DNA from: Candidatus Bathyarchaeia archaeon
GTDB lineage: Bacteria; Bacillota; Bacilli; Brevibacillales; Brevibacillaceae
Assembly (NCBI GenBank): GCA_035644815.1
Contig: DASQNU010000240.1
Coordinates: 11,422-75,421 of the forward strand
Length of the DNA stretch: 64,000 nucleotides
Reading direction: 5' to 3'
The notes under the pieces were generated by a model. It was not told where the DNA came from, ran no database searches, and saw only the letters and a list, made by a program, of their open reading frames with translations. Below, in pieces: positions 4,426-61,284 of this stretch (position 1 is its first letter; each line of letters opens with the position of its first letter). Made by a program: the position numbers and the translations under genes.

Positions 4426-5949
4426 TTACGCTCCTTCCATTGTATGCTGACGTTGAAAAGCTTCCATTTGCTCTTCGATGACATCCAGCTTCACATGTGT
4501 ACGGACCTGTTCTGCCAGCATATCGAAACCTTGCTCACGCATGCGGATAAAGGAAGGACGATCCGTTAGCGGCGGCAGACCTTTGGCGTCACGTAGCGCA
4601 TTTAGCAGGTGCGTGCGGAAATCATCATTATGGAAGATCCCGTGAAAATACGTGCCGAGCAAGCGGCCATTCTTCGCATACACCCCTTCTGTGCGATCAG
4701 ACAATGTGATGAACGGCGCGACAGATGCTGTGGCGACAGACTCGCCCATATGGATTTCATAGCCCTCCACATCAAACTGGTTGTCCGCATAATGAGCTTG
4801 GCCACGGGAGAGCACCGTCGTCTTGTTTCGCTGCAGGGTCGTACGAACTGGCAAGAGCCCCATACCAGCGATCTCGCGTTGCGGCGATTCCACGCCATGC
4901 GGGTCAGCAATGCTCTCGCCAAGCATCTGGTAGCCGCCGCAAATGCCAATTACGGGTATTTGCTTGTTGCGGTGAAGATGAAGAATCTCACCCTCCAGCC
5001 CAGTCTGACGCAGGAAAAGCAAGTCCTCGATCGTATTCTTGCTGCCGGGGAGAATGATCAGATCAGGAGTACCGAGCTCGTCCTGGCGATTGACAAAACG
5101 AACGCGGCAGTCCTGCTCGACGAGAAAGGGATCGGCATCCGTAAAGTTCGAGATGTAGGGGTAGCGGATGACGACGATGTCTAGTACTGCCTCATCCGGG
5201 ATACGCCCCTTGTATTTGTGCAAGATCAGAGAGTCCTCTGCGTCGATCATGAGCTCCGGCAGAAACGGGATCACACCAAGCACTGGCTTGCCTGTATATT
5301 GCTCGAACCAGTCCAAGCCTGGTTGTAACAATCCAAGATCGCCGCGAAAACGGTTGATGATCACCCCGATGACCCGCTCTCGATCCTCTGGCTCCAAGAG
5401 CTGCAGGGTGCCGACCAGACTGGCAAAGACCCCGCCTCGTTCGATATCCGCCACCAGAATGACAGGAGCGTTCGCCATGCGTGCGACCCTCATGTTGACC
5501 AGTTCCCGATCATTCAGATTGATTTCGGCGGGGCTGCCTGCTCCTTCGATCACAATGCGTTCGTATGCACTGGCTAGTCGCTCGTATGCATCTTGTATCA
5601 CCTGCAAGCCAATGGGAAAGAAGTCAGAACGGTAGGCCGTGGCCTTCATGTTGCTGTAGGGCTCTCCGTGGACTACGATCTGTGACTCCTGTTCACGCGT
5701 CGGCTTAATCAGGATCGGATTCATGTCGGTCGTCGCCGGGATGCGAGCAGCTTCCGCTTGTACGCCCTGCGCACGGCCAATTTCCTTTCCGTCGATGGTC
5801 ACATACGAGTTGAGGGCCATGTTTTGCGACTTGAAAGGGGCCGTCTTGTAGCCCATTTCGGAAAAGATGCGGCAGAAGGCGGTGGCCAGCACACTTTTGC
5901 CCGCGTCCGAGCCCGTTCCTTGTATCATGAGCGGTAACGCCCTACGCAT
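4426..5949 (-). CDS. cobQ: Cobyric acid synthase
   Basis: GTGSDAGKS P-loop, FKSQNMALNS, glutaminase GICGGYQMLG; start moved to the ATG after AAGGAGG. Confidence 0.95.
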   Translation of the reverse strand: MRRALPLMIQGTGSDAGKSVLATAFCRIFSEMGYKTAPFKSQNMALNSYVTIDGKEIGRAQGVQAEAARIPATTDMNPILIKPTREQESQIVVHGEPYSNMKATAYRSDFFPIGLQVIQDAYERLASAYERIVIEGAGSPAEINLNDRELVNMRVARMANAPVILVADIERGGVFASLVGTLQLLEPEDRERVIGVIINRFRGDLGLLQPGLDWFEQYTGKPVLGVIPFLPELMIDAEDSLILHKYKGRIPDEAVLDIVVIRYPYISNFTDADPFLVEQDCRVRFVNRQDELGTPDLIILPGSKNTIEDLLFLRQTGLEGEILHLHRNKQIPVIGICGGYQMLGESIADPHGVESPQREIAGMGLLPVRTTLQRNKTTVLSRGQAHYADNQFDVEGYEIHMGESVATASVAPFITLSDRTEGVYAKNGRLLGTYFHGIFHNDDFRTHLLNALRDAKGLPPLTDRPSFIRMREQGFDMLAEQVRTHVKLDVIEEQMEAFQRQHTMEGA

Positions 5950-17195: not shown

Positions 17196-17262
17196 TATGA
17201 CGGACTGCGCATCCGTGGCACTTCAACACCCCCTATCCGCGTAGGTTGATTGTGTTTCACAA

Positions 17263-17460
17263 AAACAGGCAGGTCTCCTGGCTTAGGGCCTCTCTTTTCG
17301 TGCCTTCCCGGAAAGCTGTTTTCCAGTGACATATGGCGAAAAGATTGCTCATGGTTGATGAGCACCCATCACAGTGGCGGGACCGCGCCGGCTTTTCACC
17401 GGACTTCCCTATTAAGTCGAGCCGCGCTTCCCCTTGGAGAAGCACGCTCCACACCTGTTT
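17263..17460 (-). ncRNA. Cobalamin (AdoCbl) riboswitch, internal copy
   Basis: Minus strand carries AGGGAAGTCCGGTGAAAAGCCGGCGCGGTCCCGCCACTGT, GGGAAGGC and the B12 box AGCCAGGAGACCTGCC; P1 pairs AAACAGGT with GCCTGTTT. Confidence 0.95.
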
Positions 17461-17469
17461 TCTCATGTA

Positions 17470-18018
17470 TCAAATTATCGATGGCTCTATGGTCACAAGT
17501 TCCAGATAGGCTGCATTAGGAAGAATGCCTACATCCTTACCATACGCCTGTCCCAGACATTTGATGATACTGCCGTGGGTGACAAGCAAAATATCTGTCT
17601 GCGGATAAGACACCAGAAGAGATTCTACGGCTTCCGTTACCCGCTGTCGTACTGCCGATAGGGCTTCGACCTCCCACTGCCCGTCCTGGATCTCCTCAAT
17701 ATCTGCGATCCCGTAATGGTCCTGAATTTCCTGCAAGGTCAAGCCCTCCAATCTGCCAAAAGAACGTTCACGCATACAGGTGATCACTTCGATTGGCACC
17801 TGAAAGAACTCGCTAGCGATGAAAGCAGACTGCGCGGCACGAAGCAGCGGGCTGGTGAAAATTCGCACGGGTCGCAGCTCCTCTTGGTCAGCAAGTCGTC
17901 TGCATGCTTGCCTGACCTGCTCCCTGCCATCCGGGAGAAGCGGAATATCCCGCAGCCCCTGAATGCGTCTTTCCCGATTCCACGGGGTCTCGCCATGTCT
18001 CATGACAAATAGTCGCAT
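17470..18018 (-). CDS. Histidine phosphatase family protein (second CobC-like paralog)
   Basis: MRHGET..N catalytic motif, ERSFG..EG, VTHG. Confidence 0.85.
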   Translation of the reverse strand: MRLFVMRHGETPWNRERRIQGLRDIPLLPDGREQVRQACRRLADQEELRPVRIFTSPLLRAAQSAFIASEFFQVPIEVITCMRERSFGRLEGLTLQEIQDHYGIADIEEIQDGQWEVEALSAVRQRVTEAVESLLVSYPQTDILLVTHGSIIKCLGQAYGKDVGILPNAAYLELVTIEPSII

Positions 18019-23432: not shown

Positions 23433-23491
23433 TGAAAGGCACGACGGTCCTCACCTTTTCCTTTGACCCGAAGGAAAAACAGTGTTACACA

Positions 23492-23681
23492 AAATAGGCA
23501 GGTCTCCAGGCTCGAGGATCTTCGCATACCTTCTCCTTCCCGTCGCATATGAGCGACAGTGGATGGCGGAAAACCGTGAAGGACTACTCCCCTCTTACTG
23601 TGGCGGGACCGCGTTGGATTTGCACCAAACTTCCCTTTTAACCTCACCTGCGGGCATTGCTCGTCAAATGAGGACCTATTT
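23492..23681 (-). ncRNA. Cobalamin riboswitch upstream of cobO
   Basis: AGGGAAGTTTGGTGCAAATCCAACGCGGTCCCGCCACAGT, GGGAAGG and AGCCTGGAGACCTGCC; P1 pairs AAATAGGT with GCCTATTT. Confidence 0.95.
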
Positions 23682-23758
23682 GCGATGTTATGCAATTTTT
23701 GTAAATACTAAATCCATTTCATTGTAACAAGAGATGGAGAATATTCAAGTGAAAATTT

Positions 23759-47501: not shown

Positions 47502-48284
47502 CTAGTTAAGACAAGTTTCTATACAATTGTTCATATATGTAACGAATGCATTCACCTCTGAATCTAGTCCTTCCCAACTTTCATTACTTTCACCTCGATA
47601 GGCTTTTTTTGCTATATCTAGTAAAGTTGCTTGCTCTTTGGGCAAAAGAGGTATAGCCCATTCTGCAGCCATATCTTTTGGAGAAATGTCACCGGTAGTT
47701 ACTGTTTGCCACATTCGAGCCAGGGTTAAGATTACATTACGCTCATCACCTTTGATACCCTCAATCAACTCTGGCAATGAATCCTTAATTGCTCTTCGAA
47801 TATCTGTCATTGGCACGGGGGCAAGTGTATTTGTAGCATCAGGACCAAATAGAGAAATACTATTCTTTCTTACTTGTGCTAAAACAATAGCCAAATCAGG
47901 ATCATAGCTTGGTTTTTGAATTTCTCCATTCTCAAACTCGTTCCTGAGCCACTCGCCATAGATAAATTCTTTTTTGGGGGGATAACGCCAGGGTACAACA
48001 TCGCTTTGGTTGATAACTGTGAGTTCAAGTGGTCTCAAAGAATTTGTATTTCCTATCTTTCCAGATATATGCATTAATTTGTTAGTTAGTTTTTTTCGAG
48101 TTACTTCAGGTAAACTTTGATTCACTAGCATTAGGACATCAACATCACTATTAATGCGTAAACCACCATTTACTGCAGAACCAAACAAATATACACCAAC
48201 TATCATGCTTCCAAACAAATCCTCTACAATTTTTAATGCTTCTATAGCTAGCTTCGGTATTTTTTCATTTCTCAAGTCACTCAT
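47502..48284 (-). CDS. ant(9): Spectinomycin adenylyltransferase ANT(9)
   Basis: GSAVNGGLRINSDVDV, RPLELT, WRYPPKKEFIYGEWLR, GDERNVILTLARMW; closely resembles Tn554 Spc by recall. Confidence 0.9.
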   Translation of the reverse strand: MSDLRNEKIPKLAIEALKIVEDLFGSMIVGVYLFGSAVNGGLRINSDVDVLMLVNQSLPEVTRKKLTNKLMHISGKIGNTNSLRPLELTVINQSDVVPWRYPPKKEFIYGEWLRNEFENGEIQKPSYDPDLAIVLAQVRKNSISLFGPDATNTLAPVPMTDIRRAIKDSLPELIEGIKGDERNVILTLARMWQTVTTGDISPKDMAAEWAIPLLPKEQATLLDIAKKAYRGESNESWEGLDSEVNAFVTYMNNCIETCLN

Positions 48285-48886: not shown

Positions 48887-49432
48887 TTATGGCTCCAAAT
48901 AGCCGGATGTTGTATCTAACTGTAACCAATAGCTTTTTACATTCGTTTCTCCATTAAAAAAGTCTTTTTCCTGCGCTCGCGTAAACCCCAAACGCTCATA
49001 CAATTTCACGGCTGCAACCATCATGTCAGTGGTGTGGAGATGCACGGTGGCTGCGTCTTTTTCCCTCAAGCGTTTGACACATTCCCGAATCAACCGCTCT
49101 GCAATCCCATTTCCTCTTGCTTTGGGAGATACAGCCAAATATCGGATGATCGGCGTATGGATATTCAGCTCTGGCCGGTTATAAGCCACATCCGATGAAT
49201 CGAACAGTTGTACACTGCCAACAATTTCTTGTCGCCAGCAAGCTACTAGAAACGCCATGGCATGACTTCCTTCGGCTGATTCAAGAATCTCTTGCTTGTA
49301 TTGCTTCCATTTTTCAGCGCTCAGATGCTGTTCATACTGCTCGTATGATTCGATCAAGTGTTTTCTGATTTGCTCTCGGTCCTGTGTCCACGCATCGCGG
49401 ATGGTAATATCGTTTATGTAGAGTACACGCAT
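48887..49432 (-). CDS. GNAT family N-acetyltransferase
   Basis: IRYLAVSPKARGNGIA acetyl-CoA motif, AVKLYERLGF. Confidence 0.9.
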   Translation of the reverse strand: MRVLYINDITIRDAWTQDREQIRKHLIESYEQYEQHLSAEKWKQYKQEILESAEGSHAMAFLVACWRQEIVGSVQLFDSSDVAYNRPELNIHTPIIRYLAVSPKARGNGIAERLIRECVKRLREKDAATVHLHTTDMMVAAVKLYERLGFTRAQEKDFFNGETNVKSYWLQLDTTSGYLEP

Positions 49433-49459
49433 CCTATACCAGTCCTTCTTTTCAGCAAG

Positions 49460-50329
49460 TTAAAAGGCGGGGACGACAGCGACACCATATTTGTCCTCAA
49501 TGAACTTCCTCACCTCTGGTGAATGGAGAGCTTTATCCAGCTTTTTGATGTCTTCGCGGTTTTCATCTCCTTTCCGGACAACGATGACATTGGCGTAAGG
49601 AGAGTTCGCATCTTCTCGAAACAACGCGCTTTTCGGATCGATATTTGCTTCCAAAACGACGTTTGTATTGATGACTGCACCGTCAAGATCAGGCAGCGCT
49701 CTTGGCAATGTAGCGGCCTCTGCTTCCACGAATTCCAGTTTTTTCGGATTTTCTACGATATCCTTCGGGGTCGCTTCGTATGTGGTCAAACCGTCTTTCA
49801 GCTTGATCAGCCCTTGTTCCTGCAGCAGAATCAGGGCGCGGTATTCGTTGGAAGGGTTGTTGGGGATACCGATTTTCGCCCCTTCTTTGATCTCATCCTT
49901 CGTTTTCAGCTTGTCGGAATAAAAACCAATTGGCTCTACATGCACCTTTGTCGTAACGGCGAAGTCGAAGCCTTTTTCATTTTTCACCGAATCCAGATAC
50001 GGCACGTGCTGGAAAAAATTCGCGTCGATCTGGTTGTCCTTCAAGGCAGGATTAAGTTGACCTTCGTCATCCAGCACCACCACTTCCAGGTTCACGCCTT
50101 GCTCCTTCAGCTTCGGCTTGATAAACTCCAAGATCTCTGCATGGGGTACGGGTGCTGCTCCTACCTTTACCGTTTTCGTTGGCTCAGACGCTTGATTCGT
50201 GCTCGCCGCTGCAGTCGTAGCATTTACAGCTGTTCCTGCAGAATTCTGACTGTTTGAACCGCAACCCGCAAGCGCTACACTCATAATGACCAGAGCATAC
50301 CAGATGACACCAAGACTTTTCTTACCCAT
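49460..50329 (-). CDS. metQ: MetQ/NlpA family ABC substrate-binding lipoprotein
   Basis: Lipobox LAGC, PHAEIL, DANFFQH.PYL, IPNNPSN..RAL. Confidence 0.88.
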   Translation of the reverse strand: MGKKSLGVIWYALVIMSVALAGCGSNSQNSAGTAVNATTAAASTNQASEPTKTVKVGAAPVPHAEILEFIKPKLKEQGVNLEVVVLDDEGQLNPALKDNQIDANFFQHVPYLDSVKNEKGFDFAVTTKVHVEPIGFYSDKLKTKDEIKEGAKIGIPNNPSNEYRALILLQEQGLIKLKDGLTTYEATPKDIVENPKKLEFVEAEAATLPRALPDLDGAVINTNVVLEANIDPKSALFREDANSPYANVIVVRKGDENREDIKKLDKALHSPEVRKFIEDKYGVAVVPAF

Positions 50330-50370
50330 AAGTTCCACTCCCTTTTTCAATCCTGTTTATTTGTCTTACG

Positions 50371-51039
50371 CTAATCAAATTTGTAACGCTTCTTGAGTAG
50401 TGATTTGGCGACCGAATCACCGGTCCATTGGATGATTTGGACCAAGAGGATAATAAGAAGGACTGTCGAGATCAGGACGTCTTCGCGAAACCGTTGATAG
50501 CCAAAGCGAATGGCCAGACTCCCCAGACCGCCTGCACCGATGGCACCCGCTACTGCCGTGAATTCGGTGATGCCAATGATACCGATCGTAATACCACGGA
50601 CAAGAGCTGGCAGCGCTTCGGGAATCAGTACGCGGAAAATGATTGTGAACGGAGAAGCCCCTACGGATTTAGCTGCTTCAATTTTGCCTGTACTCACTTC
50701 CTTGAGTGAATTTTCAATGATCCGACTTAAAAAGGGCGCAGCCCCGATGGAAAGAGAGACAATGGCAGCTGTCGGTCCAAGAGTCGTACCAACAATGAAA
50801 CGCGATAAAGGCAAAAGCAGCACAATCAGGATGATAAACGGAAGGGACCGGACGGCATTAATGAGCGTTGCGATTGCTTTATTAAGCTTGGGCGCAGGAA
50901 AAAGGCTGCCTTTCTCTGTTACCACTAACGTAACGCCCAGCATGATCCCCATGGCGAGGGCGAACAAGGATGACCAAAACACCATGTAAAGCGTTTCGAG
51001 GAGTCCCTCCCAAAGCAAGTCAATCAGATCGCTGTTCAT
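50371..51039 (-). CDS. metI: MetI-type ABC permease
   Basis: NAVRSLPFII, EAA motif, GAIGAGGLG. Confidence 0.88.
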   Translation of the reverse strand: MNSDLIDLLWEGLLETLYMVFWSSLFALAMGIMLGVTLVVTEKGSLFPAPKLNKAIATLINAVRSLPFIILIVLLLPLSRFIVGTTLGPTAAIVSLSIGAAPFLSRIIENSLKEVSTGKIEAAKSVGASPFTIIFRVLIPEALPALVRGITIGIIGITEFTAVAGAIGAGGLGSLAIRFGYQRFREDVLISTVLLIILLVQIIQWTGDSVAKSLLKKRYKFD

Positions 51040-51821
51040 ATCCCCGCCCCGGCTCCTTCCATCACATTTCGCTTGTCACGGTAATGGTCGATGATGTGGA
51101 CAAATCGTTTGGCAGTATCACTTTGCGGATTCAGGAAAAATTTGTCCACCGTTCCCGTCTCGACGATCCTGCCCTTTTCTAGCACAGCCATGTTGTTGCA
51201 TACGTGCTGCAGCACATCCAGTTCGTGCGTGATGAGCACGATCGTTAGCTTGAGTTTCTGGTTGATCACCTTTAACAGTTCTAATATGGAGTAAGTCGTC
51301 TGCGGATCGAGTGCGGATGTCGCTTCGTCGCTCAGCAGCAAATCTGGCTGATTAACCAGCGCTCTCGCAATACCGACGCGCTGCTTTTGACCGCCACTTA
51401 ATTGGAAGGGATACGCATTCTCTTTGTCACTTAGCTGCACGAGATGTAAGATTTCCCTGACTTGTTGGTGGATGAACGGTTTCCGGTAACCGGCCACTTC
51501 CAGCGGGAAGGCCACGTTTTGATACACCGTTTTCGCATCGAGGAGGTTGAACTGCTGAAAGATCATTCCGATTTTCTGGCGTGCCTTTCGCAGCTCTTTC
51601 TCCTGCAAATCGGTGATGACCTTGTCTCCGATCTGGATGGTGCCTGAGTCCGGTTCCTCCAGCCGATTGAGGCAGCGAATCAGTGTCGATTTCCCAGCAC
51701 CGGAAAAACCGATAATCCCGAAGACATCCCCTTTTGGAATATACAGATTGATGTCTTGTAAAACAGGAATGGTGCCAGTTGTGGTTTTGTACGATTTATT
51801 GAGGTGCTGTATGTGTATCAT
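51036..51821 (-). CDS. metN: MetN-type ABC ATPase lacking the C-terminal NIL domain
   Basis: GFSGAGKST, LSGGQKQRVGIARAL, DEATSALDP; ends after about 260 aa. Confidence 0.86.
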   Translation of the reverse strand: MIHIQHLNKSYKTTTGTIPVLQDINLYIPKGDVFGIIGFSGAGKSTLIRCLNRLEEPDSGTIQIGDKVITDLQEKELRKARQKIGMIFQQFNLLDAKTVYQNVAFPLEVAGYRKPFIHQQVREILHLVQLSDKENAYPFQLSGGQKQRVGIARALVNQPDLLLSDEATSALDPQTTYSILELLKVINQKLKLTIVLITHELDVLQHVCNNMAVLEKGRIVETGTVDKFFLNPQSDTAKRFVHIIDHYRDKRNVMEGAGAGI

Positions 51822-52984
51822 CCACTCATCCTTCCCGTTAGTGCGCTTTTGGCTAATTCGGAAAAATAGCGCGCACAGATGAAAAGAGCACGTTCATCCA
51901 CCGTAAATCCGGGATGATGCCATTCCTTCGTACCAGAAGTTCCGATGAAAATGAACGAACCGGGTACTTTTTCTTGGTAGTAGGCGAAATCTTCTCCCGC
52001 AAGAGACGGTTCGGGCTCTACCACTTGCAAACCAACTTTGTGGGCAGTTTCAATCGACAGCTCTGTGAGCACAAAATCGTTTTGGACAGAAGGCGGTCCT
52101 TTAAACCACTTCAGGCTGACTTTGGCGTTATAAGCAGCTGCCACCCCTTCAATGATGGTCTGTATCCGTTTCGGTATAAGGGAGCGTACTTCTTCGTGAA
52201 ACGTGCGCACGGTCCCTTCGAGCACCACTTTGTTCGGAATGACATTCCAGGTAGTGCCACCATGGATGGTCGTCACACTGACGACAGCTTGATCCAAGGG
52301 GCTGATGTTTCTACTGACAATGGATTGCAAAGCCGTTACCATTTGTGCGGCAGCAACAATCGGGTCAATGCCTGTATGCGGAATCGCGGCGTGTGTGCCG
52401 AGTCCCTCCACGACGATTTCGAAGCCGTCCACACTCGCCATCATGGCTCCCGATTTTATCCCGATCGTTCCGACTTCCAGATCGGGCTTATTATGCAACC
52501 CGAAGATCGCTTGAACACCCCTGAGTGCTCCTCTATCGATCAGAAGGGATGCCCCCGTTCCTTTTTCTTCTGCTGGCTGAAACAGGAATCGCACCGTTCC
52601 TGGCAGTGTGTCTTCCTGTTGTTTTAATAGAAAAGCGGCTCCAAGAATGACCGCGGCATGAAAATCATGGCCGCATGCATGCATATTTCCGAAGATTCTG
52701 GATGCATACGGAAGACCCGTCTCTTCTTGAATCGGCAATGCGTCGACATCCGCACGTAAGGCTATGATCGGGCCGTCATGTTTGCTCCCCACCTCTGCGA
52801 TTACGCCGGTTGGTAAGGAGAGATCGACAATCCGTATATCCGCCTCTTCCAGCCAACCGCGAATCGACTTGGTTGTTTCGAACTCTTCATTGGCCACTTC
52901 CGGGTATTGATGGAGGTGCCTGCGAATGGTAATCAGCTTTGTCTCCAATTCGATTGCTGCAGTTTCATGTGTTCGAGTCCCCAC
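51818..52984 (-). CDS. M20 amidohydrolase (YxeP/ScmP-like N-acetylcysteine deacetylase)
   Basis: RADVDALP, MHACGHDFH, FQPAEE, GEDF, WHHP. Confidence 0.88.
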   Translation of the reverse strand: MGTRTHETAAIELETKLITIRRHLHQYPEVANEEFETTKSIRGWLEEADIRIVDLSLPTGVIAEVGSKHDGPIIALRADVDALPIQEETGLPYASRIFGNMHACGHDFHAAVILGAAFLLKQQEDTLPGTVRFLFQPAEEKGTGASLLIDRGALRGVQAIFGLHNKPDLEVGTIGIKSGAMMASVDGFEIVVEGLGTHAAIPHTGIDPIVAAAQMVTALQSIVSRNISPLDQAVVSVTTIHGGTTWNVIPNKVVLEGTVRTFHEEVRSLIPKRIQTIIEGVAAAYNAKVSLKWFKGPPSVQNDFVLTELSIETAHKVGLQVVEPEPSLAGEDFAYYQEKVPGSFIFIGTSGTKEWHHPGFTVDERALFICARYFSELAKSALTGRMSG

Positions 52985-53001
52985 TCCTTTCTCTCCTTTC
53001 T

Positions 53002-54354
53002 TCAGAATTTCACTTGGGTCAATGGCCGGCGTTGTTTCACTAAACGATTTTCTGGCTTGCGCAGCCCCAAATGATCACGCAGTGTGTCCCCTTCGTAATC
53101 CAAACGATATAAGCCTCTGTCCTGTAAAATCGGAATCACTTTATCGACGAATGCTTCCAGCCCTTGCGGAAGTATCGGAGCGATGAACATAAATCCGTCC
53201 GCTGCTCCCTCTGTAAACCATTTCTCCAACACATTTGCGATCTGGACCGGTGTGCCGATCGATTCCCGGTTGGCTCCCCCTTCCAACAAAGTGTACAGCT
53301 CGCGCAAGGTGGGGTTCTTCTTTCTGATCAGTTCCGTCATCCATTCAAAGTGACTCTGAATGCCGTTATCTGTGGGAAAGTCGACTTCTGCCGCCGGGGT
53401 GTCCAGGGTGTATTTGCTAAAATCAACTTTGCCCAGATATCCAGACAAAAAGCGCAAGCCTTGCTCGGGCAGCAAAAGATCCTGTAATTGTCGGTGAATG
53501 GCATCGGCTTCTTCCTGCGTATCCGCGATGATTGGGGATATGCCTTGGAGGATGTGGAGTTCATCCGGTGTACGGCCATATGCAAAGAGTCTGCTTTTCA
53601 GACTTTGATAGAACGCTTTTGCTCTGGCGAAATCCTTCACATGTGAAAAGACGACTTCTGCTGTACGTGCAGCCAATCGCTGCCCCGGCTCGGAAGCACC
53701 TGCTTGCACGATTACGGGCTGACCTTGTTTGGAGCGGCCGATGTTAAGCGGGCCCTGGACGGAGTAGTACTTTCCTTTGTAATGCAGCCGATGCATTTTT
53801 GCTGGATCAAAGAAAACACCCGTTTCTTTGTCCTGTACGAATGCATCGTCCTCCCAAGAATCCCATAATCCTTGGACCACATCGATGAACTCTTCAGCGC
53901 GTTCATACCGATGATCGTGCTCCACATGGGCCTCGCGACTGAAATTGCGGCCGGTTTCACCAGTGGCATCACCGGTTGTGACCATATTCCAGCCCGCACG
54001 ACCGCCGCTGATATGGTCGACGGAAGCAAACAGTCGTGCCAAATTGTACGGCTCATGATAGGTGGTCGAAGCCGTAGCGACCAGTCCGATTTTTGACGTA
54101 GCTCCAGCCAATGCGGCAAGCAAAGTCGTCGGTTCAAAGCGATTCAAAATATTCGGATGGGAGTCTTCATTTACGGCCAAGCTATCTGCGATAAAGGCGA
54201 TATCAAACTTTCCGCGTTCTGCCGTCTGTGCCAAGCGTTTGTAGAACTCGAGATCGATACTCGCGTTTTTTGGTGCGGAAGGCAATCGCCACGATGCTAC
54301 ATGTATACCTGTACCCACCAAGTAAGCGGATAAGTGAATCTGCCTCTTTGTCAT
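53002..54354 (-). CDS. NtaA/DmoA family flavin-dependent monooxygenase (YxeK-like)
   Basis: [38 protein letters not shown]. Confidence 0.88.
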   Translation of the reverse strand: MTKRQIHLSAYLVGTGIHVASWRLPSAPKNASIDLEFYKRLAQTAERGKFDIAFIADSLAVNEDSHPNILNRFEPTTLLAALAGATSKIGLVATASTTYHEPYNLARLFASVDHISGGRAGWNMVTTGDATGETGRNFSREAHVEHDHRYERAEEFIDVVQGLWDSWEDDAFVQDKETGVFFDPAKMHRLHYKGKYYSVQGPLNIGRSKQGQPVIVQAGASEPGQRLAARTAEVVFSHVKDFARAKAFYQSLKSRLFAYGRTPDELHILQGISPIIADTQEEADAIHRQLQDLLLPEQGLRFLSGYLGKVDFSKYTLDTPAAEVDFPTDNGIQSHFEWMTELIRKKNPTLRELYTLLEGGANRESIGTPVQIANVLEKWFTEGAADGFMFIAPILPQGLEAFVDKVIPILQDRGLYRLDYEGDTLRDHLGLRKPENRLVKQRRPLTQVKF

Positions 54355-54399
54355 GAGCGTCTCTTCCTTTCCTTCAGCATCATTCAACGGTCAGCACCG

Positions 54400-55236
54400 C
54401 TAGTTTTTGTAGGCATCTTTGAAGTTTTTCAGTTCTTCTACCGAGACTTGGGTCGGAATGTAGTTCCCTTTGTACGTTTCGGTGATAAAGTCCGATACCT
54501 CTTTTGATTGATAGATGGCCACCAGCTTCTTCAGGTCCTCCCGATTCTCATTGTTCTTGGTAGTTGCGATCACATTGATATATGGCTTTGCAGTCTGTTT
54601 CTCATGAAAGATCGCGTCTTTTAAAAGGAAACCAGCTTCCACTGCGATCCCGTTATTGATAATCGAGGCGGCGACATCTTTCATGACACGTGGCGTATTC
54701 GCGCCCTCCACCGGGACAATCTCGAGATTTTTGGGATTTTCCTTGATTTTGTCTTCCCCGCCAAAACCATCGAAATTGTCCACGACCTTGATGAGTCCAG
54801 CTTCCTGCAAAAGAACCAGCGATCGTCCCCAGTTTGAGTCATCATTCGGTACCGCGATCTTCGCATTGTCCGGAATGTCTTCGATTTTTTTGTATTTATC
54901 CGAATAAATACCGAGGGGGGCAATAATGGTCGACCCGACCGGTACGATGTCCGAATTGTTCTTCGTATTAAATTGGTCGAGGAAAGCAACGTGCTGAAAA
55001 GCATTCGCGTCGATGTCTCCTTCGAGCAGGACTGTGTTCGGATTCACATTCGCATTAAACTGCACCACTTCAATGTGCAGACCTTGTTTTTCCGCTTGCG
55101 CCTTCACGAAATCCCACGTACGGCTTTCCGATCCCCGGATACCAATTTTCAGTCTTGATTCTTCCGCTTGCGTAGCGCAACCTGCTGCCACCAGCGAGAT
55201 GATTGCCATGAAGAAGAACATCGCTAATTTTTTCAT
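54400..55236 (-). CDS. metQ: MetQ/NlpA family lipoprotein (second copy)
   Basis: Lipobox AAGC, DANAFQH, PNDDSNWGRSL. Confidence 0.88.
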   Translation of the reverse strand: MKKLAMFFFMAIISLVAAGCATQAEESRLKIGIRGSESRTWDFVKAQAEKQGLHIEVVQFNANVNPNTVLLEGDIDANAFQHVAFLDQFNTKNNSDIVPVGSTIIAPLGIYSDKYKKIEDIPDNAKIAVPNDDSNWGRSLVLLQEAGLIKVVDNFDGFGGEDKIKENPKNLEIVPVEGANTPRVMKDVAASIINNGIAVEAGFLLKDAIFHEKQTAKPYINVIATTKNNENREDLKKLVAIYQSKEVSDFITETYKGNYIPTQVSVEELKNFKDAYKN

Positions 55237-55264
55237 AAATGAATCTCTCCTGTCTTTTCTTGCG

Positions 55265-55915
55265 TTATTTCCGCCGGATCTTTCGTGCCAGGACGTTACC
55301 GAAGGATTGTAAGCTTTGCACCATGATGACCAGAATGACAACGGTCGTGACAATCGTAATGGTGCTAAACCGCTGGTGTCCGTAAGTAATGGCTAGATCA
55401 CCAATACCACCGCCACCGACTGCACCCGCCATTGCTGTTGCACCGATCAAGCCTATCGTAGCGGTCGTAATGCTGAGGACGAGAGAGCCAAGGGTTTCCG
55501 GGATGAGAAAGCGGAAAATGATTTGCAGCGGAGTTGCTCCCATCGCTTCAGCCGCTTCGATGATTCCTGCATTCACTTCCAGCAAGGAGTTTTCTACCAA
55601 ACGGGCGATGTATGGCCCCGTGTAGATGACCAAAGGCACAATCGCTGCTGTCGTACCAATGGAGGTTCCGACGATTAGTCTCGTAAAAGGAATGATCGCC
55701 ACCAGCAAAATGATGAATGGTACAGAGCGAAACACATTGATGATGGGATTCAAGATCGAAAAGACGGCTTGATTCTCTAAAATATGTCCCTTGCGTGTAA
55801 CGACCAATAATATGCCCAGCGGAAGGCCGATCACCGTCGCAAACACCAATGAGACACCCACCATATAGAGCGTTTCGTAGATCGCTTGGATGACTTGAGC
55901 AGAAGTGACTTCCAT
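55265..55915 (-). CDS. metI: MetI-type ABC permease (second copy)
   Basis: NVFRSVPFII, EAAEAMGA, GAVGGGGIG. Confidence 0.88.
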   Translation of the reverse strand: MEVTSAQVIQAIYETLYMVGVSLVFATVIGLPLGILLVVTRKGHILENQAVFSILNPIINVFRSVPFIILLVAIIPFTRLIVGTSIGTTAAIVPLVIYTGPYIARLVENSLLEVNAGIIEAAEAMGATPLQIIFRFLIPETLGSLVLSITTATIGLIGATAMAGAVGGGGIGDLAITYGHQRFSTITIVTTVVILVIMVQSLQSFGNVLARKIRRK

Positions 55916-55917
55916 CG

Positions 55918-57018
55918 TTACAGGATCTCCTTTACAATGGCATTTTGTTGGAGCATAAACTGATACGCACGAGTAATTTCTGGTTCACTGCCTTGCAGTT
56001 CGACGATCAAGTTTCCAAACGGTGTTCCTTGCAGCTCCGTGATGTTTCCGAACAACACATTGGCATCGCAATGGAACCGTTTTGCCACTTGAGAGATCAT
56101 CGGTTGACCCGAGTGTTCGCCGATAAACTGAATCTTGAAGATTCTCGATTGCCCCCGGTTGACTTCCAGAATCCTGAATACGCTGGGGGGAATATCATCC
56201 CGAACAACCGATTTGACAAAATTACGAGCCGTCTCGGTCTGTGGATTCGCGAATACATCGAGTACATTTCCCAGTTCTATCACTTCGCCTTGACTCATGA
56301 CTGCTACTCTGTTGCAAACTTCTTTGATGACATTCATTTCATGGGTGATCATGAGGATGGTAATGTTGTACTCCTTGTTCACTCTTTTTAACAGTTGCAG
56401 GATGGACGCTGTTGTTTCCGGATCCAAAGCCGATGTGGCTTCGTCGCACAAGAGAATCGACGGATTCGTCGCAAGTGCCCTGGCGATTCCCACCCTCTGC
56501 TTTTGCCCGCCGGATAGCTGATCCGGATAATTCTTCGCTTTCTCTGTCAATCCAACAAACGACAATAACTCGATGACACGATCTTGTATCTGTTTTTTCG
56601 GTGTCTGACTGAGGATAAGCGGCATCGCCACATTTTCAAACACTGTCTTCGTCTCCAATAGGTGAAACTGCTGAAAAATCATCCCGATATCCTTCTTGGT
56701 GTTTCGGAGTTCTTTCACGGATAATTTCGTTACATCTTTACCATCGACAATCACTTTGCCCGATGTGGGGCGTTCTAGCAGGTTCACGGTACGAAGCAAG
56801 GTACTTTTCCCCGCACCGCTAAAGCCGATGACGCCGAAGATGTCTCCTTTTTTCACGGTAAAGGTTACGCCTTTTAAGGCCACGGTTGTTTTTTCGTTGC
56901 TTGTAAATACTTTATGAACATCGTGAAATTCGATCATGCTGGTGTTTGTTTCACTATGGATGCCAATAGGTGAATGTGTCGTAATCGTTGTTTCCAGAAC
57001 ACTCGGACCGTTCCCCAT
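55918..57018 (-). CDS. metN: MetN-type ABC ATPase with C-terminal NIL domain
   Basis: Walker A, signature and Walker B motifs plus C-terminal FIGEHSGQPMISQV..NVLFGNI; AGGAGG RBS at 57018. Confidence 0.9.
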   Translation of the reverse strand: MGNGPSVLETTITTHSPIGIHSETNTSMIEFHDVHKVFTSNEKTTVALKGVTFTVKKGDIFGVIGFSGAGKSTLLRTVNLLERPTSGKVIVDGKDVTKLSVKELRNTKKDIGMIFQQFHLLETKTVFENVAMPLILSQTPKKQIQDRVIELLSFVGLTEKAKNYPDQLSGGQKQRVGIARALATNPSILLCDEATSALDPETTASILQLLKRVNKEYNITILMITHEMNVIKEVCNRVAVMSQGEVIELGNVLDVFANPQTETARNFVKSVVRDDIPPSVFRILEVNRGQSRIFKIQFIGEHSGQPMISQVAKRFHCDANVLFGNITELQGTPFGNLIVELQGSEPEITRAYQFMLQQNAIVKEIL

Positions 57019-57043
57019 CCCTTTTCCTCCTAACCATTTGACT

Positions 57044-57307
57044 TTACTTGATGGATAATAGCGACTCGAGGCGATCCAGCTCTGTATAACGCAAAGCCTC
57101 ATATTTGCCGTTTCCGCCGATTTCAACGACCGGAATGTAACGAGTGCCATATTTGATTTCCAGCACATCACGGAGAACGTCTTTTCCTTCCACATCAATC
57201 CATTCGTACGGGTGATTTTGTGCTTCCAAAACCGCCTTGACATCGGAGCAATACGAGCTACCGTTTTTTCCCCATAAGATCACTTTTTGTTTTGTTGACA
57301 TGTACAT
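57044..57307 (-). CDS. Glutaredoxin-like protein (YtnI/CmoI-like)
   Basis: WGKNGSSYCSDVK..IDV..RDVLEIKYG.RYIPVVEIG. Confidence 0.8.
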   Translation of the reverse strand: MYMSTKQKVILWGKNGSSYCSDVKAVLEAQNHPYEWIDVEGKDVLRDVLEIKYGTRYIPVVEIGGNGKYEALRYTELDRLESLLSIK

Positions 57308-57337
57308 TTCCTCCCTCTCCCTGATTACTGACCATCG

Positions 57338-57396
57338 AAAACAAAAAAAGACTCCCTGCCTTGGATTGGCAGGAAGTCTCCAGTTGACTGGTCGAC
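57338..57396 (-). promoter_or_regulatory. Leader attenuator 1: conserved hairpin overlapping an intrinsic terminator
   Basis: GTCGACCAGTCAACTGGAGAC (57396-57376) overlaps the GACTTCCTGCC/GGCAGGGAGTC-U7 terminator. Confidence 0.75.
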
Positions 57397-57404
57397 TAAC
57401 AAAT

Positions 57405-57456
57405 TAATTCATATCGGATTACTTGGGATATTACCATCCTCCATCTTTTCCGTCAA
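57405..57456 (-). promoter_or_regulatory. SigmaA promoter of the leftward operon with a CymR-like box
   Basis: TTGACG-17-TAATAT; TATCCCAAGTAATCCGATATGAATTA overlaps -10/+1. Confidence 0.65.
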
Positions 57457-57504
57457 CCATATTTTCCTTGAGAATGATGAGCAATCCGAACGATCAAGTA
57501 GCCA

Positions 57505-57555
57505 TTGACAACATGGTGATTTACCGATAAAATCCAAGCAAATAACTAGGAAAAC
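57505..57555 (+). promoter_or_regulatory. SigmaA promoter of the rightward monooxygenase with a CymR-like box
   Basis: TTGACA-17-TAAAAT; AAATCCAAGCAAATAACTAGGAAAA overlaps -10/+1. Confidence 0.65.
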
Positions 57556-57568
57556 AAAATCAAGTGCT

Positions 57569-57631
57569 GCCGACTGGACAATCAGAGGCCCCTTTTAGAA
57601 GAGTTTCGACTTCGAAGGGGGCTCTTTTTTT
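57569..57631 (+). promoter_or_regulatory. Leader attenuator 2: conserved hairpin overlapping an intrinsic terminator
   Basis: GCCGACTGGACAATCAGAGGC (57569-57589) overlaps the AGAGGCCCCTT../..AAGGGGGCTCT-U terminator. Confidence 0.75.
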
Positions 57632-57655
57632 ATTCATCATTAGGAGGGAAGAAAA

Positions 57656-58672
57656 ATGACGCTGAAGCTAAGTATTTTGGATCAAAGTCCCATTCAAGAA
57701 GGAGAAACAGCGACATTGGCTTTTCAACATACGATCACTTTAGCAAAGAAAGCAGAAGAACTCGGGTATCACCGTTTCTGGGTATCTGAGCACCACGACC
57801 TGGATCATGTAGTCGGATCTTCCCCAGAAGTGCTCATCAGTCATTTACTGGCAAAGACTGAGCGAATCCGTATCGGTTCAGGAGGTGTCATGCTACAGCA
57901 TTATAGCCCGTATAAAGTCGCTGAGAATTTTCATGTGCTTGCTTCTTTGGCCCCCGGCCGTGTCGATCTGGGCATTGGCAGAGCACCGGGCGGACTTCCT
58001 CTCTCGACAAAGGCCCTGCAACCGGATGAAGTGACATATCGCAGAACACTTGCTGAAAAACTTGTGGAGCTGGAGCAATTCCTTCATGATGAGTGGAAAC
58101 CAGATCAACCGTTCTATGGTTTGAAAGTCACTCCCACTCCTCCCGAACCGGCAGATTTGTTCCTATTGGGGACCAGTATCGCCAGCGCGGAATTGGCTGC
58201 GGAGCGTGGGATTCCCTATGTCTTCGCTTTGTTTATTAACCATGAGGAGGCCGATTGCCTTGCCGCGATTGAGACGTATCGTCGGCAATTTCGTACAGGG
58301 AAAAAGGTCAAACCTGAAGTCATCCTCGCCCTTTCCGTCATTGTCGCCGATACGGAAGAAGAAGCTGCGTATTTAGCGGCCGATGCCAAAATCGTAAAGA
58401 TCCATTTGAAAAGCGGGAAAACATTAACTCTCACCAGCTTGAAAAAGGCCGAAGAGTTTGGACGACAATCGGCTGAGCCGTACAAAATAGAAGTAAAGGA
58501 AGCCAATGTCGTTCACGGAACCAAAGAAAGTGTACGGGACAAACTGATTTCCTTACAGCGTAGATATCAAGTCGGAGAAGTGATCATTACAACACCGATC
58601 AAGGACTTTCATAAACGCCTTTTATCGTATGAGCGATTACGGGAAGCATTTTCGGAGCTTACTGTACCTTGA
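57656..58672 (+). CDS. Luciferase-like monooxygenase (YtmO/CmoO-like)
   Basis: LSILDQSP, GYHRFWVSEHH, IGSGGVML.HYSPYKVAE.F, GRVDLGIGRAPGG. Confidence 0.88.
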   Translation: MTLKLSILDQSPIQEGETATLAFQHTITLAKKAEELGYHRFWVSEHHDLDHVVGSSPEVLISHLLAKTERIRIGSGGVMLQHYSPYKVAENFHVLASLAPGRVDLGIGRAPGGLPLSTKALQPDEVTYRRTLAEKLVELEQFLHDEWKPDQPFYGLKVTPTPPEPADLFLLGTSIASAELAAERGIPYVFALFINHEEADCLAAIETYRRQFRTGKKVKPEVILALSVIVADTEEEAAYLAADAKIVKIHLKSGKTLTLTSLKKAEEFGRQSAEPYKIEVKEANVVHGTKESVRDKLISLQRRYQVGEVIITTPIKDFHKRLLSYERLREAFSELTVP

Positions 58673-58690
58673 GTAACGGATGATGCGAAT

Positions 58691-58739
58691 GAAAAAAGAC
58701 TGGCTCAGTGCATCAAGACGCATCGAGTCAGTCTTTTTT
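58691..58739. terminator. Bidirectional terminator between convergent monooxygenases
   Basis: AAAAAAGACTGGCTC/GAGTCAGTCTTTTTT. Confidence 0.75.
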
Positions 58740-58746
58740 ATGTGAT

Positions 58747-60099
58747 TTAATAAGGAGTATTCGTTATTGGCTGGTTGGCGGCTTTTTCTCTTGTGTATCG
58801 GTTTTCAGGGATGGAGAGTCCCAAATTTCCGCGCAGCGTGTCCGCTTCATACTCTGAACGGTAAATTCCTCGCTCCTGCAAGATTGGTACGACGAAATCA
58901 ACAAAGTCGTCTAATCCTCCGGGGACACTGGAATGAATGATAAATCCATCGGCTCCTTTCTCTTCAAACCACTGCTGAATTAGATTTGCTACCTTTTCGG
59001 GTGTCCCCATAAACTCACTTCTAGGTGTTGCAGTTTGCAGCGCAACTTGCCGAAGTGTCCACTGTTTCTCCTTGGCCGTTTGCTTGATTTTGTCAGTCGT
59101 GCTCCGAAAGCTATTGCTCCCAATGTCACCTAGTTCAGGAAATGGTTCATCCAAAGGGTATTGCGAAAAATCGTGGTGATCAAAAAATCTACCCAGGTAG
59201 TTCAGGGCATGCTCAATACTGACCAGATTCATAATCTCATCATGCTTTCTCTCTGCTTCCTCTTTTGTCGTGCCGATAATGGGACGAATGCCGGGGAAAA
59301 TGAGAATTTCATCTGGGGACCGTCCATATTCCAACGCTCTCGTTTTTACATCCTGGTAAAAGCGTTTCGCATCCTCCAATGTTTCGGCTCCCGTAAAAAC
59401 AGCATCGGCTGATTTCGCTGCCAATGTTTTTCCGCTTTCGGATGAGCCTGCCTGGAAAATGACCGGATGGCCTTGCTTCGAGCGGGCAATGTTCAAAGGA
59501 CCTTGCACGGAAAAATACTCGCCCTGATGGTTCAACCGATGCATTTTTTGCGGATCGAAAAATACGCCCGTTTCCTTATCCCGTACAAAGGCGTCATCTT
59601 CCCACGAATCCCATAAGCCTCTCGTCACGTGCAAATGCTCCTCAGCGATCCGGTAACGGTGATCATGGGCGGGATGCTCTTTTTTCCCGTAATTGAATGC
59701 AGAACCTTCCAAGGGAGATGTCACGACATTCCACCCAGCTCTCCCCCCACTGATATGGTCCAGCGAGGCAAACTGCCTGGCTACGGTAAACGGTTCACTG
59801 TATGTAGTCGAAACCGTTCCGACCAGACCGATCTTTGAAGTCACGGCCGCTAATGCGGATAAAATGGTAAGCGGCTCAAACCGATTCAAAAAATGCGGCA
59901 GCGATTTTTCGTTGATATACAGGCCATCTGCAATAAAGACCAGATCTAATTTACCGGCTTCCGCTTTTTGAACCTGCTGTACATAGAACCCGAAGTTAAC
60001 ACTAGCATCCGTCAAAGCGTTCGGGTGTCTCCAAGCACCCATGTTCCCTCCTACTCCATGAATCATGGCGCCAAGTTTTAACTTTCTTACGCTGCCCAT
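58747..60099 (-). CDS. NtaA/DmoA family monooxygenase (YtnJ/CmoJ-like)
   Basis: [43 protein letters not shown]. Confidence 0.9.
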
Positions 60100-60159
60100 G
60101 TTTTTGCCCTCCTTTTTTTTGCGATGTCCCGACAAAACAGAGGCTCTTTTTTACAAATG

Positions 60160-60206
60160 CAAAAAAGCCCCCATTTTACATAGGAGCCTTTGGTTGACCA
60201 ATCAGC
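60160..60206 (-). promoter_or_regulatory. Leader attenuator 3: conserved hairpin overlapping an intrinsic terminator
   Basis: GCTGATTGGTCAACCAAAGGC (60206-60186) overlaps the AAAGGCTCC/GGGGCTTTTTT terminator; TTGACA-16-TATTCT promoter at 60300-60273. Confidence 0.7.
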
Positions 60207-60444
60207 TTTTTGCTCTTATTTGGTTGTTTGTGTAGTGACAACAACACAAATCATGGCAGAATCTTACATCCAAGAATATGGGGATTATTCCCAGTTGTCA
60301 AGTTTGAATTTATCCGTGCTGTTATTCAATGCTTTGTCAACCCTTTACACTACCCGACGTCATTCCCCCAATACTCCTTTCTCCGCTGGTAAGCCTGCTC
60401 ACAATGCAGCAGATCTTCACAAAATGACTCTTTCTTGTCGTCTA

Positions 60445-61032
60445 CTATTTCTTGATTCCTTCTAAAAACAAAGCTATTACCTTCATCGTGTCTTCCAATG
60501 CAGCTGGACGCAACGAAGATTCATGGGCGAGCCACAGCGAGGTCTCATTCAAAGCTCCTGAAATAAAATGGGTCATGGCATCGAGGGGAACGTCTTGGAA
60601 GTTTCCCTGTTTTTGCATGATTTCTAGCTGCCCCCGCAACAATCGCATGGAGTGGTTCGCATCAATCGCCCGCCATGCATCCCAGCCCAAGATTGCCGGA
60701 CCGTCAATCAACATAATTCGCTTGTTTTGCGGCTCCACTGCCGCTAATACGAAAGCGCGGCAACCAAGATAGAGCTGTTGCCAGACGTCTTCACTGAGGG
60801 AAGCCTCCTGTTCCACCCGTTCGGCAACTTCTTGTTGGACAGATTCAAGCACACTCCTGAATAATTCCTTCTTGCTGCGGAAATGGTGGTAGACCGCTCC
60901 TCTCGTAATATTCGCCTCTTGTACGATGGATTCCAACGCAGTATTCGTATAACCATATTCAGTAAAATGCGCTCTCGCGATGTGAATGAGTTTGCGTATC
61001 GTTTCGTCCGTCTCAGCTTTACTTCTTCTCAT
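60445..61032 (-). CDS. TetR/AcrR family regulator
   Basis: FTEYGY..T.LESIV..ANITRGAVYHHF.SK.ELF. Confidence 0.92.
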   Translation of the reverse strand: MRRSKAETDETIRKLIHIARAHFTEYGYTNTALESIVQEANITRGAVYHHFRSKKELFRSVLESVQQEVAERVEQEASLSEDVWQQLYLGCRAFVLAAVEPQNKRIMLIDGPAILGWDAWRAIDANHSMRLLRGQLEIMQKQGNFQDVPLDAMTHFISGALNETSLWLAHESSLRPAALEDTMKVIALFLEGIKK

Positions 61033-61284
61033 ACTGTCCTCCACCCCCGTATGAACGCTGGTGCATTCCTAAGTATCGCAGCGATGGCCAAGGCAGCCTA
61101 ATCTCCGAATTTCACTCTCGACCCTATTGCATGCCGGATCATTCGAGGGTCTTGTTTCCATTCTGCGAACAATTGATTGTCAATCATTCAAGCGTAATGG
61201 ATTTGTATTCCTTCGTCAAATCGTTACCTGATTCGCAGCGGACTTTGTATTGGAGCAGAAGAATCATGGTCCAATGCCACTCGA

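Follow-up and report, generated by a model that had tools for sequence, protein, structure and literature searches.

A hairpin shared by three organosulfur leaders

The stretch of DNA analysed here (the window) covers 64,000 nucleotides (nt) of contig DASQNU010000240.1 from assembly GCA_035644815.1, labelled Candidatus Bathyarchaeia archaeon and placed by GTDB in the Brevibacillaceae, and it contains three transcription units whose leaders share a 21-nt RNA hairpin that runs into an intrinsic terminator. We describe this hairpin, its spread across Bacilli and its linkage to the gene of a small protein, YezD (DUF2292, OscA family), and weigh whether the two could form an antitermination system. 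Unit 1 is an operon for a glutaredoxin-like protein, a MetN/MetI/MetQ-like ATP-binding cassette (ABC) transporter, an NtaA/DmoA flavin mononucleotide (FMN) monooxygenase, an M20 amidohydrolase, a second MetNIQ-like ABC transporter and a GNAT acetyltransferase, while units 2 and 3 are represented by a flavin oxidoreductase and a monooxygenase gene, respectively. Because of this gene content, "organosulfur salvage" is a fair label for the three units, with unit 1 of an organosulfur or S-alkylcysteine salvage type, and the set resembles the ytmI/yxe operons of B. subtilis.

48887..57307, minus strand: unit 1 operon (Pfam and NCBIfam matches)
57337..57381, minus strand: intrinsic terminator 1, a 14-bp stem GGAGACUUCCUGCC..GGCAGGGAGUCUUU and a U-tract, with the 5' arm starting inside hairpin 1 (scan and minimum-free-energy (MFE) fold)
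57376..57396, minus strand: hairpin copy 1, GUCGA-CCAG-UCAA-CUGG-AGAC, in the leader of the glutaredoxin-like/ABC/monooxygenase operon (32.8 bits with covariance model R1)
57428..57456, minus strand: promoter-like site of unit 1, TTGACG-17-TAATAT (consensus match only; hairpin ~24 nt from the start site)
57505..57533, plus strand: promoter-like site of unit 2, TTGACA-17-TAAAAT (11/12 consensus matches)
57569..57589, plus strand: hairpin copy 2, GCCGA-CUGG-ACAA-UCAG-AGGC (31.9 bits with R1)
57584..57631, plus strand: intrinsic terminator 2, AGAGGCCCCUUUU...AAGGGGGCUCU and a U-tract, with the 5' arm from A57584, inside hairpin 2 (MFE fold)
57656..58672, plus strand: unit 2 gene, MsnO8-family LLM-class flavin oxidoreductase (TIGR03558, E = 8e-111)
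58747..60135, minus strand: unit 3 gene, NtaA/DmoA-family FMN-dependent monooxygenase (TIGR03860, E = 2.5e-171)
60157..60191, minus strand: intrinsic terminator 3, AAAGGCUCCUAUG..AUGGGGGCUUUU and a U-tract, with the 5' arm starting inside hairpin 3 (scan and fold)
60186..60206, minus strand: hairpin copy 3, GCUGA-UUGG-UCAA-CCAA-AGGC (35.4 bits with R1)
60273..60301, minus strand: promoter-like site of unit 3, TTGACA-17-TATTCT (consensus match)

The three 21-mers had been picked out in an earlier note on this DNA, and both their positions and their sequences were borne out by re-reading the letters of the window and by a pattern scan: GYYGA-N4-WCAA-N4-AGRC matches only three times on the two strands, compared with a mean of 0.05 matches in dinucleotide-preserving shuffles of the window, among which 0/100 reached three. 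In its general form the element is built from an outer stem of 3 bp, the GA/A internal loop, an inner stem of 4 bp and a terminal loop of 4-5 nt. The common fold proposed in that note was recovered when each copy was folded alone, with the structure (((..((((....)))).))) at -4.7 to -6.4 kcal/mol; for copy 2, the minimum proper (-5.8 kcal/mol) opens the loop-adjacent G.U pair, and the model structure lies at -5.4 kcal/mol. The compensatory stem changes it listed are likewise correct in all named pairs, copies 1, 2 and 3 carrying C-G, C-G and U-A at pair 6-17, C-G, U-A and U-A at 7-16, A-U, G-C and G-C at 8-15, and G-C, G.U and G-C at 9-14.

Terminator scanning and folding also agree with the observation that the 3' end of the hairpin doubles as the 5' arm of a terminator in all three leaders, since the final 4-5 nt of each hairpin are the opening nucleotides of a long terminator stem that is followed by a U-tract. 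Terminator 1 folds at -27.4 kcal/mol, and terminator 2 was missed by the simple scan because its loop exceeds 8 nt. When the hairpin is enforced in the fold, the terminator loses the 3-5 pairs adjoining the U-tract, and such U-tract-adjacent stem pairs are expected to be required for termination by intrinsic terminators. The inner hairpin stem lies outside the overlap and, as judged by folding, can coexist with the terminator. CymR-like boxes, which would bear on the additional transcriptional repression proposed in the note, were recognised in the promoters by eye only, and the unit 3 monooxygenase has a probable ATG start near 60101.

Covariation across relatives

In a seed alignment of the hairpin (A1), 98% of cells pair and four pairs show double changes, the observed value being reached by 0/500 shuffles. 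As A1 had been pre-filtered for pairing, a second, context-defined set (A5) was built, for which yezD was located by protein homology and all downstream matches to the unpaired and outer anchor letters were taken, with pairing not required and three obviously spurious rows retained on purpose. In A5, 93% of cells pair, as compared to 21-48% in slid controls, double changes occur in six of the seven pairs, and 0/500 shuffles match. Inner stems vary as UCGG/CCGA, CCGG/CCGG, CCAG/CUGG, CUGG/CCAG, UUGG/CCAA, CUAG/CUAG, CCGU/ACGG and CCAU/AUGG, and outer stems as GCC/GGC, GCU/GGC, GUC/GAC, UCC/GGA, ACC/GGU and UUC/GAA, with the terminator changing alongside. Pair 3-19 is U.G in about a third of the alignment rows (6/16 and 7/21). 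The covariation in relatives that had been set as a check is thus present in both alignments and, along with the tolerance of G.U pairs and the constant sense orientation, supports the original proposal of an RNA structure rather than a DNA operator; the element accordingly acts at the RNA level.

Distribution and regulon across Bacilli

The covariance-model search for further copies returned many across Bacilli. Model R1 was built from 16 variants, and R2 represents a pentaloop form seeded by B. cereus-group leaders. Among 151 sampled Bacilli genomes, R1 has matches in 81 at E<=1 and in 36 at E<=1e-3, and R2 adds seven genomes, so that 43/151 are hairpin-positive (R1 E<=1e-3 or R2 E<=1e-5), with up to 13 copies per genome. 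The sampled genomes are related, and co-occurrence counts drawn from them are descriptive rather than a statistical test. The broad motif reads GCYGA, 4 bp, a 4-5 nt loop, 4 bp, A and GGC, and in the sampled Bacilli it always lies in sense orientation ahead of sulfur-acquisition genes. Near-invariant across relatives are the GA/A internal loop and the outer GCC/GGC stem. The terminal loop, by contrast, is constant as claimed earlier only within the window, and in relatives it takes the forms ACAA, UCAA, ACCA, ACGA, UCGA, ACAG, AUAA, AAAA and the pentaloops ANAAA. The flanks of the inspected loci are A-rich and unconserved and show neither a conserved second hairpin nor a conserved pseudoknot partner.

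Pattern searches gave a consistent picture. In 41 related genomes a loose pattern has many matches; those with a paired inner stem that were fetched all lie in terminator-bearing leaders of sulfur genes, and unpaired ones fall in coding sequence. Searched for exactly, GCYGATCGGWCAACCGAAGGC occurs at 62 loci of the named genome collection, in Brevibacillus (the genus of the window), the Bacillus pumilus and licheniformis groups, Priestia megaterium, Alkalihalobacillus, Aneurinibacillus, Thermoactinomyces, Paenibacillus, Oceanobacillus and others. At 56/62 of these, a T-run stands at the expected terminator position and is followed by sulfur-type genes, the genes found after exact-consensus hairpins being ssuB, sbp, ssuE-like FMN reductase, LLM monooxygenase, tauE, arylsulfotransferase-like and cymR-like; a few others are chance matches in coding regions (Pseudomonas, Burkholderiales, Acidobacteriota metagenome-assembled genomes (MAGs)). 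The common layout is a promoter, an A-rich spacer, the hairpin and a terminator starting AGGCUCC or AGGCCCC, and the promoters often bear a GGAAT-type box, which we take to resemble the CymR operator. Bacilli and two unclassified MAG contigs are the only places in which the canonical GA/A form is confirmed.

A B. subtilis-like genome (G173) has the hairpin, GCUGAUCGGACCGCCGAAGGC, with a terminator in its ssuB leader, and a further copy before an fbpB-like gene. The latter arrangement, in which hairpin and terminator precede a small, very basic protein resembling "Fur-regulated basic protein FbpB" (NF033227, below cut-off) just upstream of ssuB, recurs in B. subtilis-like and B. pumilus-group genomes (L222, at G173:C1:979899-979919, and L053, L054, L060, L066, L078, L080 and L082), and would, unexpectedly, connect a protein of iron-sparing type with the sulfur hairpin. 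Covariance-model matches of 40 nt in B. subtilis-like genomes were discarded as coding-region false positives.

Linkage to yezD

A pairing-aware scan of the genome that holds the window revealed a fourth perfect copy, GCUGAUCGGACAACCGAAGGC, fused to a terminator on contig C112. The gene order there is rrf2 (CymR-like), yezD, hairpin/terminator and sbp-cysT-cysW-cysA (~4588-5300, minus strand, outside the window), with the hairpin beginning 14 nt past the stop codon of the 65-amino-acid (aa) yezD open reading frame (ORF). This ORF belongs to PF10055/DUF2292 (64.1 bits versus a gathering cut-off of 22), and its homologues are named "YezD family protein" by NCBI. The view that a trans factor is not encoded in the window holds, and the candidate gene resides on another contig of the same genome. 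Four Alkalihalobacillus loci (L045, L058, L086 and L096) show the rrf2-yezD-sbp order too, with the hairpin ahead of rrf2. The same genome as the window also contains a degenerate fifth copy, GCCGAUCAAUCAACUGAAGGC (C122:9701-9721, plus strand, L040), in which one pair is an A.C mismatch and which lacks both an overlapping terminator and an ORF close downstream; it is probably non-functional, either a relic or a chance match.

Across the sampled genomes, PF10055 was detected in 56/151, including 41 of the 43 hairpin-positive ones. As a control, the sulfate-binding protein gene (TIGR00971) is present in 30/43 hairpin-positive and 22/108 hairpin-negative genomes, and Sbp is missing from 11 genomes in which hairpin and YezD occur together. 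In a genus of the same family as the window, the two genomes that lack YezD also lack the hairpin while keeping sbp, and the two YezD-bearing genomes have 1 and 7 hairpin copies. The hairpin is thus linked more tightly to YezD than to sbp. The association extends to physical proximity, as a scan downstream of yezD located a hairpin within ~100 nt of 36/55 yezD genes, often at 3-15 nt; the spacing from stop codon to hairpin ranges from 3 to 94 nt and is usually 3-60 nt. Of the two hairpin-positive genomes without a PF10055 match, G117 and G126, the former has a divergent 51-aa YezD-like ORF (PF10055 E about 2) with a TAG stop codon that runs into the first hairpin G. In G173, yezD lies apart from the hairpins, as would suit a factor acting in trans. 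The tight linkage between the hairpin and YezD/DUF2292 is new here.

Several yezD loci have features of their own. At L224 (G117:C88) and L143 (G123:C102), the yezD stop (TAG or TGA) overlaps the first hairpin nucleotides (GCUGA), so that a terminating ribosome would occlude the 5' strand of the hairpin, which suggests that translational coupling is possible at these two loci. Leader-peptide attenuation through yezD translation was considered, given the often short distance to the stop codon, and rejected as a general mechanism: runs of Cys or Met are absent from YezD, the spacing is variable (3-94 nt), and no ORF precedes most hairpins, among them the three of the window. Some genomes encode 2-4 YezD paralogues, which fall into two sequence types, ..VVQDGKVIQLEKNEKVRLK and ..VHDSQITQIERxEKHRF with a basic tail, and at paralogue loci L138 and L150 (G093) and L139, L169 and L173 (G110), each yezD has its own hairpin variant beside it. 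"QDG" YezD tends to occur with pentaloops and cysH, and "HDS" YezD with tetraloops and sbp or ssuE, both being found in G093. Separately, L189 (G126:C37:10341-10361, minus strand) is a well-formed hairpin, UCCGACCGGACAACCGGAGGA, with a terminator before an XRE-family helix-turn-helix gene and with sigma-like and primase-like ORFs nearby; it may be either a chance match or a mobile element that borrowed the switch.

The YezD of this genome scores 41.7 bits against the OscA equivalog NF033785, below the 85-bit cut-off, which indicates membership of the same superfamily rather than equivalence. Its AlphaFold (AF2) model consists of an N-terminal helix, a beta-hairpin and a basic tail, with a predicted local distance difference test (pLDDT) score of 76, and the protein probably oligomerises. 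No relative in the PDB was found by sequence.

Relation to known systems

A search of the window against Rfam 15 at gathering thresholds returned only two cobalamin riboswitches, located elsewhere, and a search of 57250-60350 at E<=10 gave only spurious microRNA (miRNA) or ctRNA-like matches, on the terminators. No Rfam 15 family, including SAM/S-box, T-box and the PyrR site, thus matches the element. The idea of a PyrR site, which arose from a B. methanolicus paper with "(SAM)-(PyrR)" leaders, was dropped because of the lack of a PyrR match in the Rfam search. The claimed novelty needs qualification, however: although absent from Rfam, the element had already been aligned in 2010 as an unnamed leader. 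A literature search on YezD/DUF2292 and sulfur leader antitermination retrieved as its only relevant precedent Naville & Gautheret 2010 (Genome Biol 11:R97, PMC2965389), who reported an "ssuB-ABC-leader" as a premature-terminator element in bacilli. In their supplementary alignments, GCTGATTGGAGAAACCAAAGGC and a terminator precede ssuB and BA3074 of the B. cereus group, and the B. licheniformis ssuB leader in their candidate list carries the exact consensus 21-mer, GCTGATCGGTCAACCGAAGGC. The two elements are the same, the B. cereus-group leaders containing the pentaloop variant; the consensus structure given there marks the terminator and not the hairpin, and comes without the covariation, wider regulon, factor or mechanism proposed here (PMC2965389).

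The ssuBACD operon of B. subtilis is a sulfur-regulated operon with a leader terminator, and in the B. subtilis-like genome the hairpin lies just before that terminator. Van der Ploeg et al. are said to have found in 2001 (Mol Microbiol) that the ssu operon is regulated at both initiation and termination, and to our knowledge no antiterminator element or factor was defined in that study.

The closest analogy in logic is with the ribonucleic antiterminator (RAT), a weak hairpin on the 5' side of a leader terminator that is stabilised by a BglG/SacY/LicT/GlcT protein (see PMC3575810). The overlap typical of RAT elements is seen here as well, the last 4-5 nt of each hairpin forming the base of the terminator stem. 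RAT elements are ~29 nt long with two asymmetric internal loops, and their partners are CAT-domain proteins that contain PRDs and are controlled by the phosphotransferase system (PTS). By inspection against the RAT consensus, the present element differs in its length (21-22 nt), its single 2x1 internal loop and its consensus, and neither the RAT consensus nor the RAT partner is matched, no search for a CAT-domain protein having been made. ANTAR targets are composed of two tandem short hairpins with hexaloops that have A at position 1 and G at position 4, whereas the hairpin here stands singly, has a tetra- or pentaloop and is preceded by no conserved second one. The earlier note's judgement that the motif fits neither RAT nor ANTAR consensus is therefore upheld by inspection.

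In gene arrangement, the C112 locus recalls HutP, with a regulator gene followed by the target terminator and then the structural genes (yezD, hairpin/terminator, sbp), as well as pyrR-pyrP, in which a small regulator gene lies ahead of a terminator and structural genes. HutP is a hexamer that binds UAG repeats, needs histidine and blocks a terminator in the hut operon. The target here differs in being one small bulged hairpin with no UAG repeats, and YezD is unrelated to HutP in sequence, its RNA binding being putative. The nearest named relative of YezD is OscA of Pseudomonas corrugata, which is induced by sulfur starvation or chromate and encoded in an oscA-sbp unit (Viti et al. 2009, as cited in PMC2996968). 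Like YezD, OscA is a small protein of the DUF2292 family whose gene belongs to a sulfate ABC cluster.

Proposed mechanism and alternatives

The comparative evidence supports the core proposal of the earlier note, namely a trans-acting antiterminator with RAT-like logic, in that the hairpin excludes the basal terminator pairs. We consider it quite likely that the hairpin is a regulated RNA antiterminator in need of a stabilising factor. In the mechanism we propose, the hairpin is transcribed 25-70 nt after the start site, and its 3' strand (A-G-G-C) doubles as the base of the terminator 5' arm. Since the hairpin is weak (about -5 to -6.5 kcal/mol) compared to the terminator, termination would be the default. 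A factor acting in trans, presumably a protein that binds the hairpin, would clamp it and block the 3-5 terminator pairs next to the U-tract, allowing RNA polymerase to read through into the sulfur-acquisition genes. The leading candidate for this factor is the ~65-aa YezD, to which we assign a probability of roughly 0.45-0.5, acting under sulfur limitation, a signal suggested by the regulon content alone. In its broadest form, which we hold at slightly under even odds, YezD/OscA would constitute an unrecognised class of very small RNA-binding antiterminator clamping the hairpins of the whole sulfur-acquisition regulon across Bacilli, with a putative scope that spans sulfate ABC, ssu, ssuE, LLM monooxygenases, cysH and tauE.

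Several observations weigh against YezD as the factor. YezD is itself a member of the regulon, so that co-occurrence could reflect shared function and not binding. It is encoded in 15/108 hairpin-negative genomes, mostly of one large-genome family with no strong hairpin, and several YezD-positive hairpin-negative genomes carry weaker or variant hairpins adjoining yezD. Conversely, G126 has a hairpin and terminator, in a prophage-like context, and no YezD. The one Pseudomonas genome examined with oscA-sbp has no canonical GA/A hairpin, and the pairing of YezD subtype with loop size, tried as a rule, is broken by G148 and G002. Finally, a Foldseek search of the YezD model against the PDB gave no neighbour with E<1, so that nothing marks it as RNA-binding, although this result speaks neither for nor against RNA binding. 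An unlikely but serious alternative, favoured by the regulon membership of YezD and by the case of G126, is an antiterminator dependent on some other factor (be it a different RNA-binding protein, a complex of CymR/CysK type or an RNA acting in trans), with YezD merely a co-regulated sulfur-starvation protein such as a sulfate-uptake accessory. YezD often lies within sulfate-uptake operons, its fold is unlike that of known RNA-binding proteins, and a polar effect on sbp could account for the phenotype of the oscA insertion in P. corrugata (PMC2996968). Mere co-regulation is harder to reconcile with the closer association of the hairpin with YezD (41/43) than with sbp (30/43), with the persistence of the link in the 11 sbp-less genomes and in the genome with unlinked yezD, and with the hairpin retained at the stop codon of the highly divergent YezD-like ORF; no other conserved neighbour was seen.

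The remaining alternatives dispense with a protein partner or with an RNA element altogether. That the hairpin is a miniature riboswitch, whose GA/A or terminal loop binds a sulfur-status metabolite such as O-acetylserine and thereby stabilises the antiterminator, seems improbable: its placement and logic match a riboswitch expression platform, conservation of the unpaired nucleotides is strong and the protein partner is only putative, but 21-22 nt with a 2x1 internal loop and a variable loop offer little for a specific pocket, the flanks hold no conserved second hairpin or pseudoknot partner, and we know of no riboswitch aptamer this small. Just as improbable, if not slightly more so, is a constitutive RNA feature (a 5'-end stabiliser, terminator-folding aid or processing site) under promoter repression alone. 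The ability of the inner stem to coexist with the terminator and the CymR-like promoter boxes identified by eye are compatible with such a role, yet the 5' outer strand (GCY), which serves only the terminator-excluding structure, is nearly invariant, with its changes matched in the 3' strand and the terminator, and the GA/A loop is conserved across families, which implies recognition by something. Least plausible of all, and in our estimate very remote, is a DNA operator in which an inverted repeat recruits a dimeric repressor as a roadblock. Any hairpin is an inverted repeat and some variants (TCGGTCAACCGA) are near-palindromic, but the half-sites covary rather than being conserved, the frequent G.U pairs become A.C mismatches on the other strand and so disfavour an operator, and the motif is asymmetric (GA versus A, unsymmetric loop), always sense and always terminator-fused.

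Other features of the window

The two cobalamin riboswitches (RF00174) lie at 17251-17473 and 23480-23694, both on the minus strand, with 97.9 and 109.9 bits, respectively. An aminoglycoside nucleotidyltransferase gene (AadA_C and NTP_transf_2, ant(9)-like; 47502-48284, minus strand) is located directly past the end of the unit 1 operon, and a TetR-family regulator gene (TetR_N and TetR_C_41; 60445-61044, minus strand) just upstream of the unit 3 promoter region, with no evident link to the hairpin.

Implications for sulfur control in Bacilli

Current accounts of how Bacilli respond to sulfur starvation invoke the CymR repressor, S-box riboswitches and T-boxes. A second widespread layer that acts at the level of termination through an RNA motif of its own would supply a regulator class so far missing. 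If the reading of YezD as a hairpin-clamping antiterminator is true, DUF2292 would gain a function, and the termination control of the B. subtilis ssu leader would be explained. Genomes of the B. subtilis group hold both the hairpin (ssuB and fbpB-like leaders) and an unlinked yezD, which makes the hypothesis directly testable in a standard laboratory strain. A 21-nt hairpin with its partner could serve as a compact orthogonal switch, and definition of the motif would improve the annotation of sulfur regulons.

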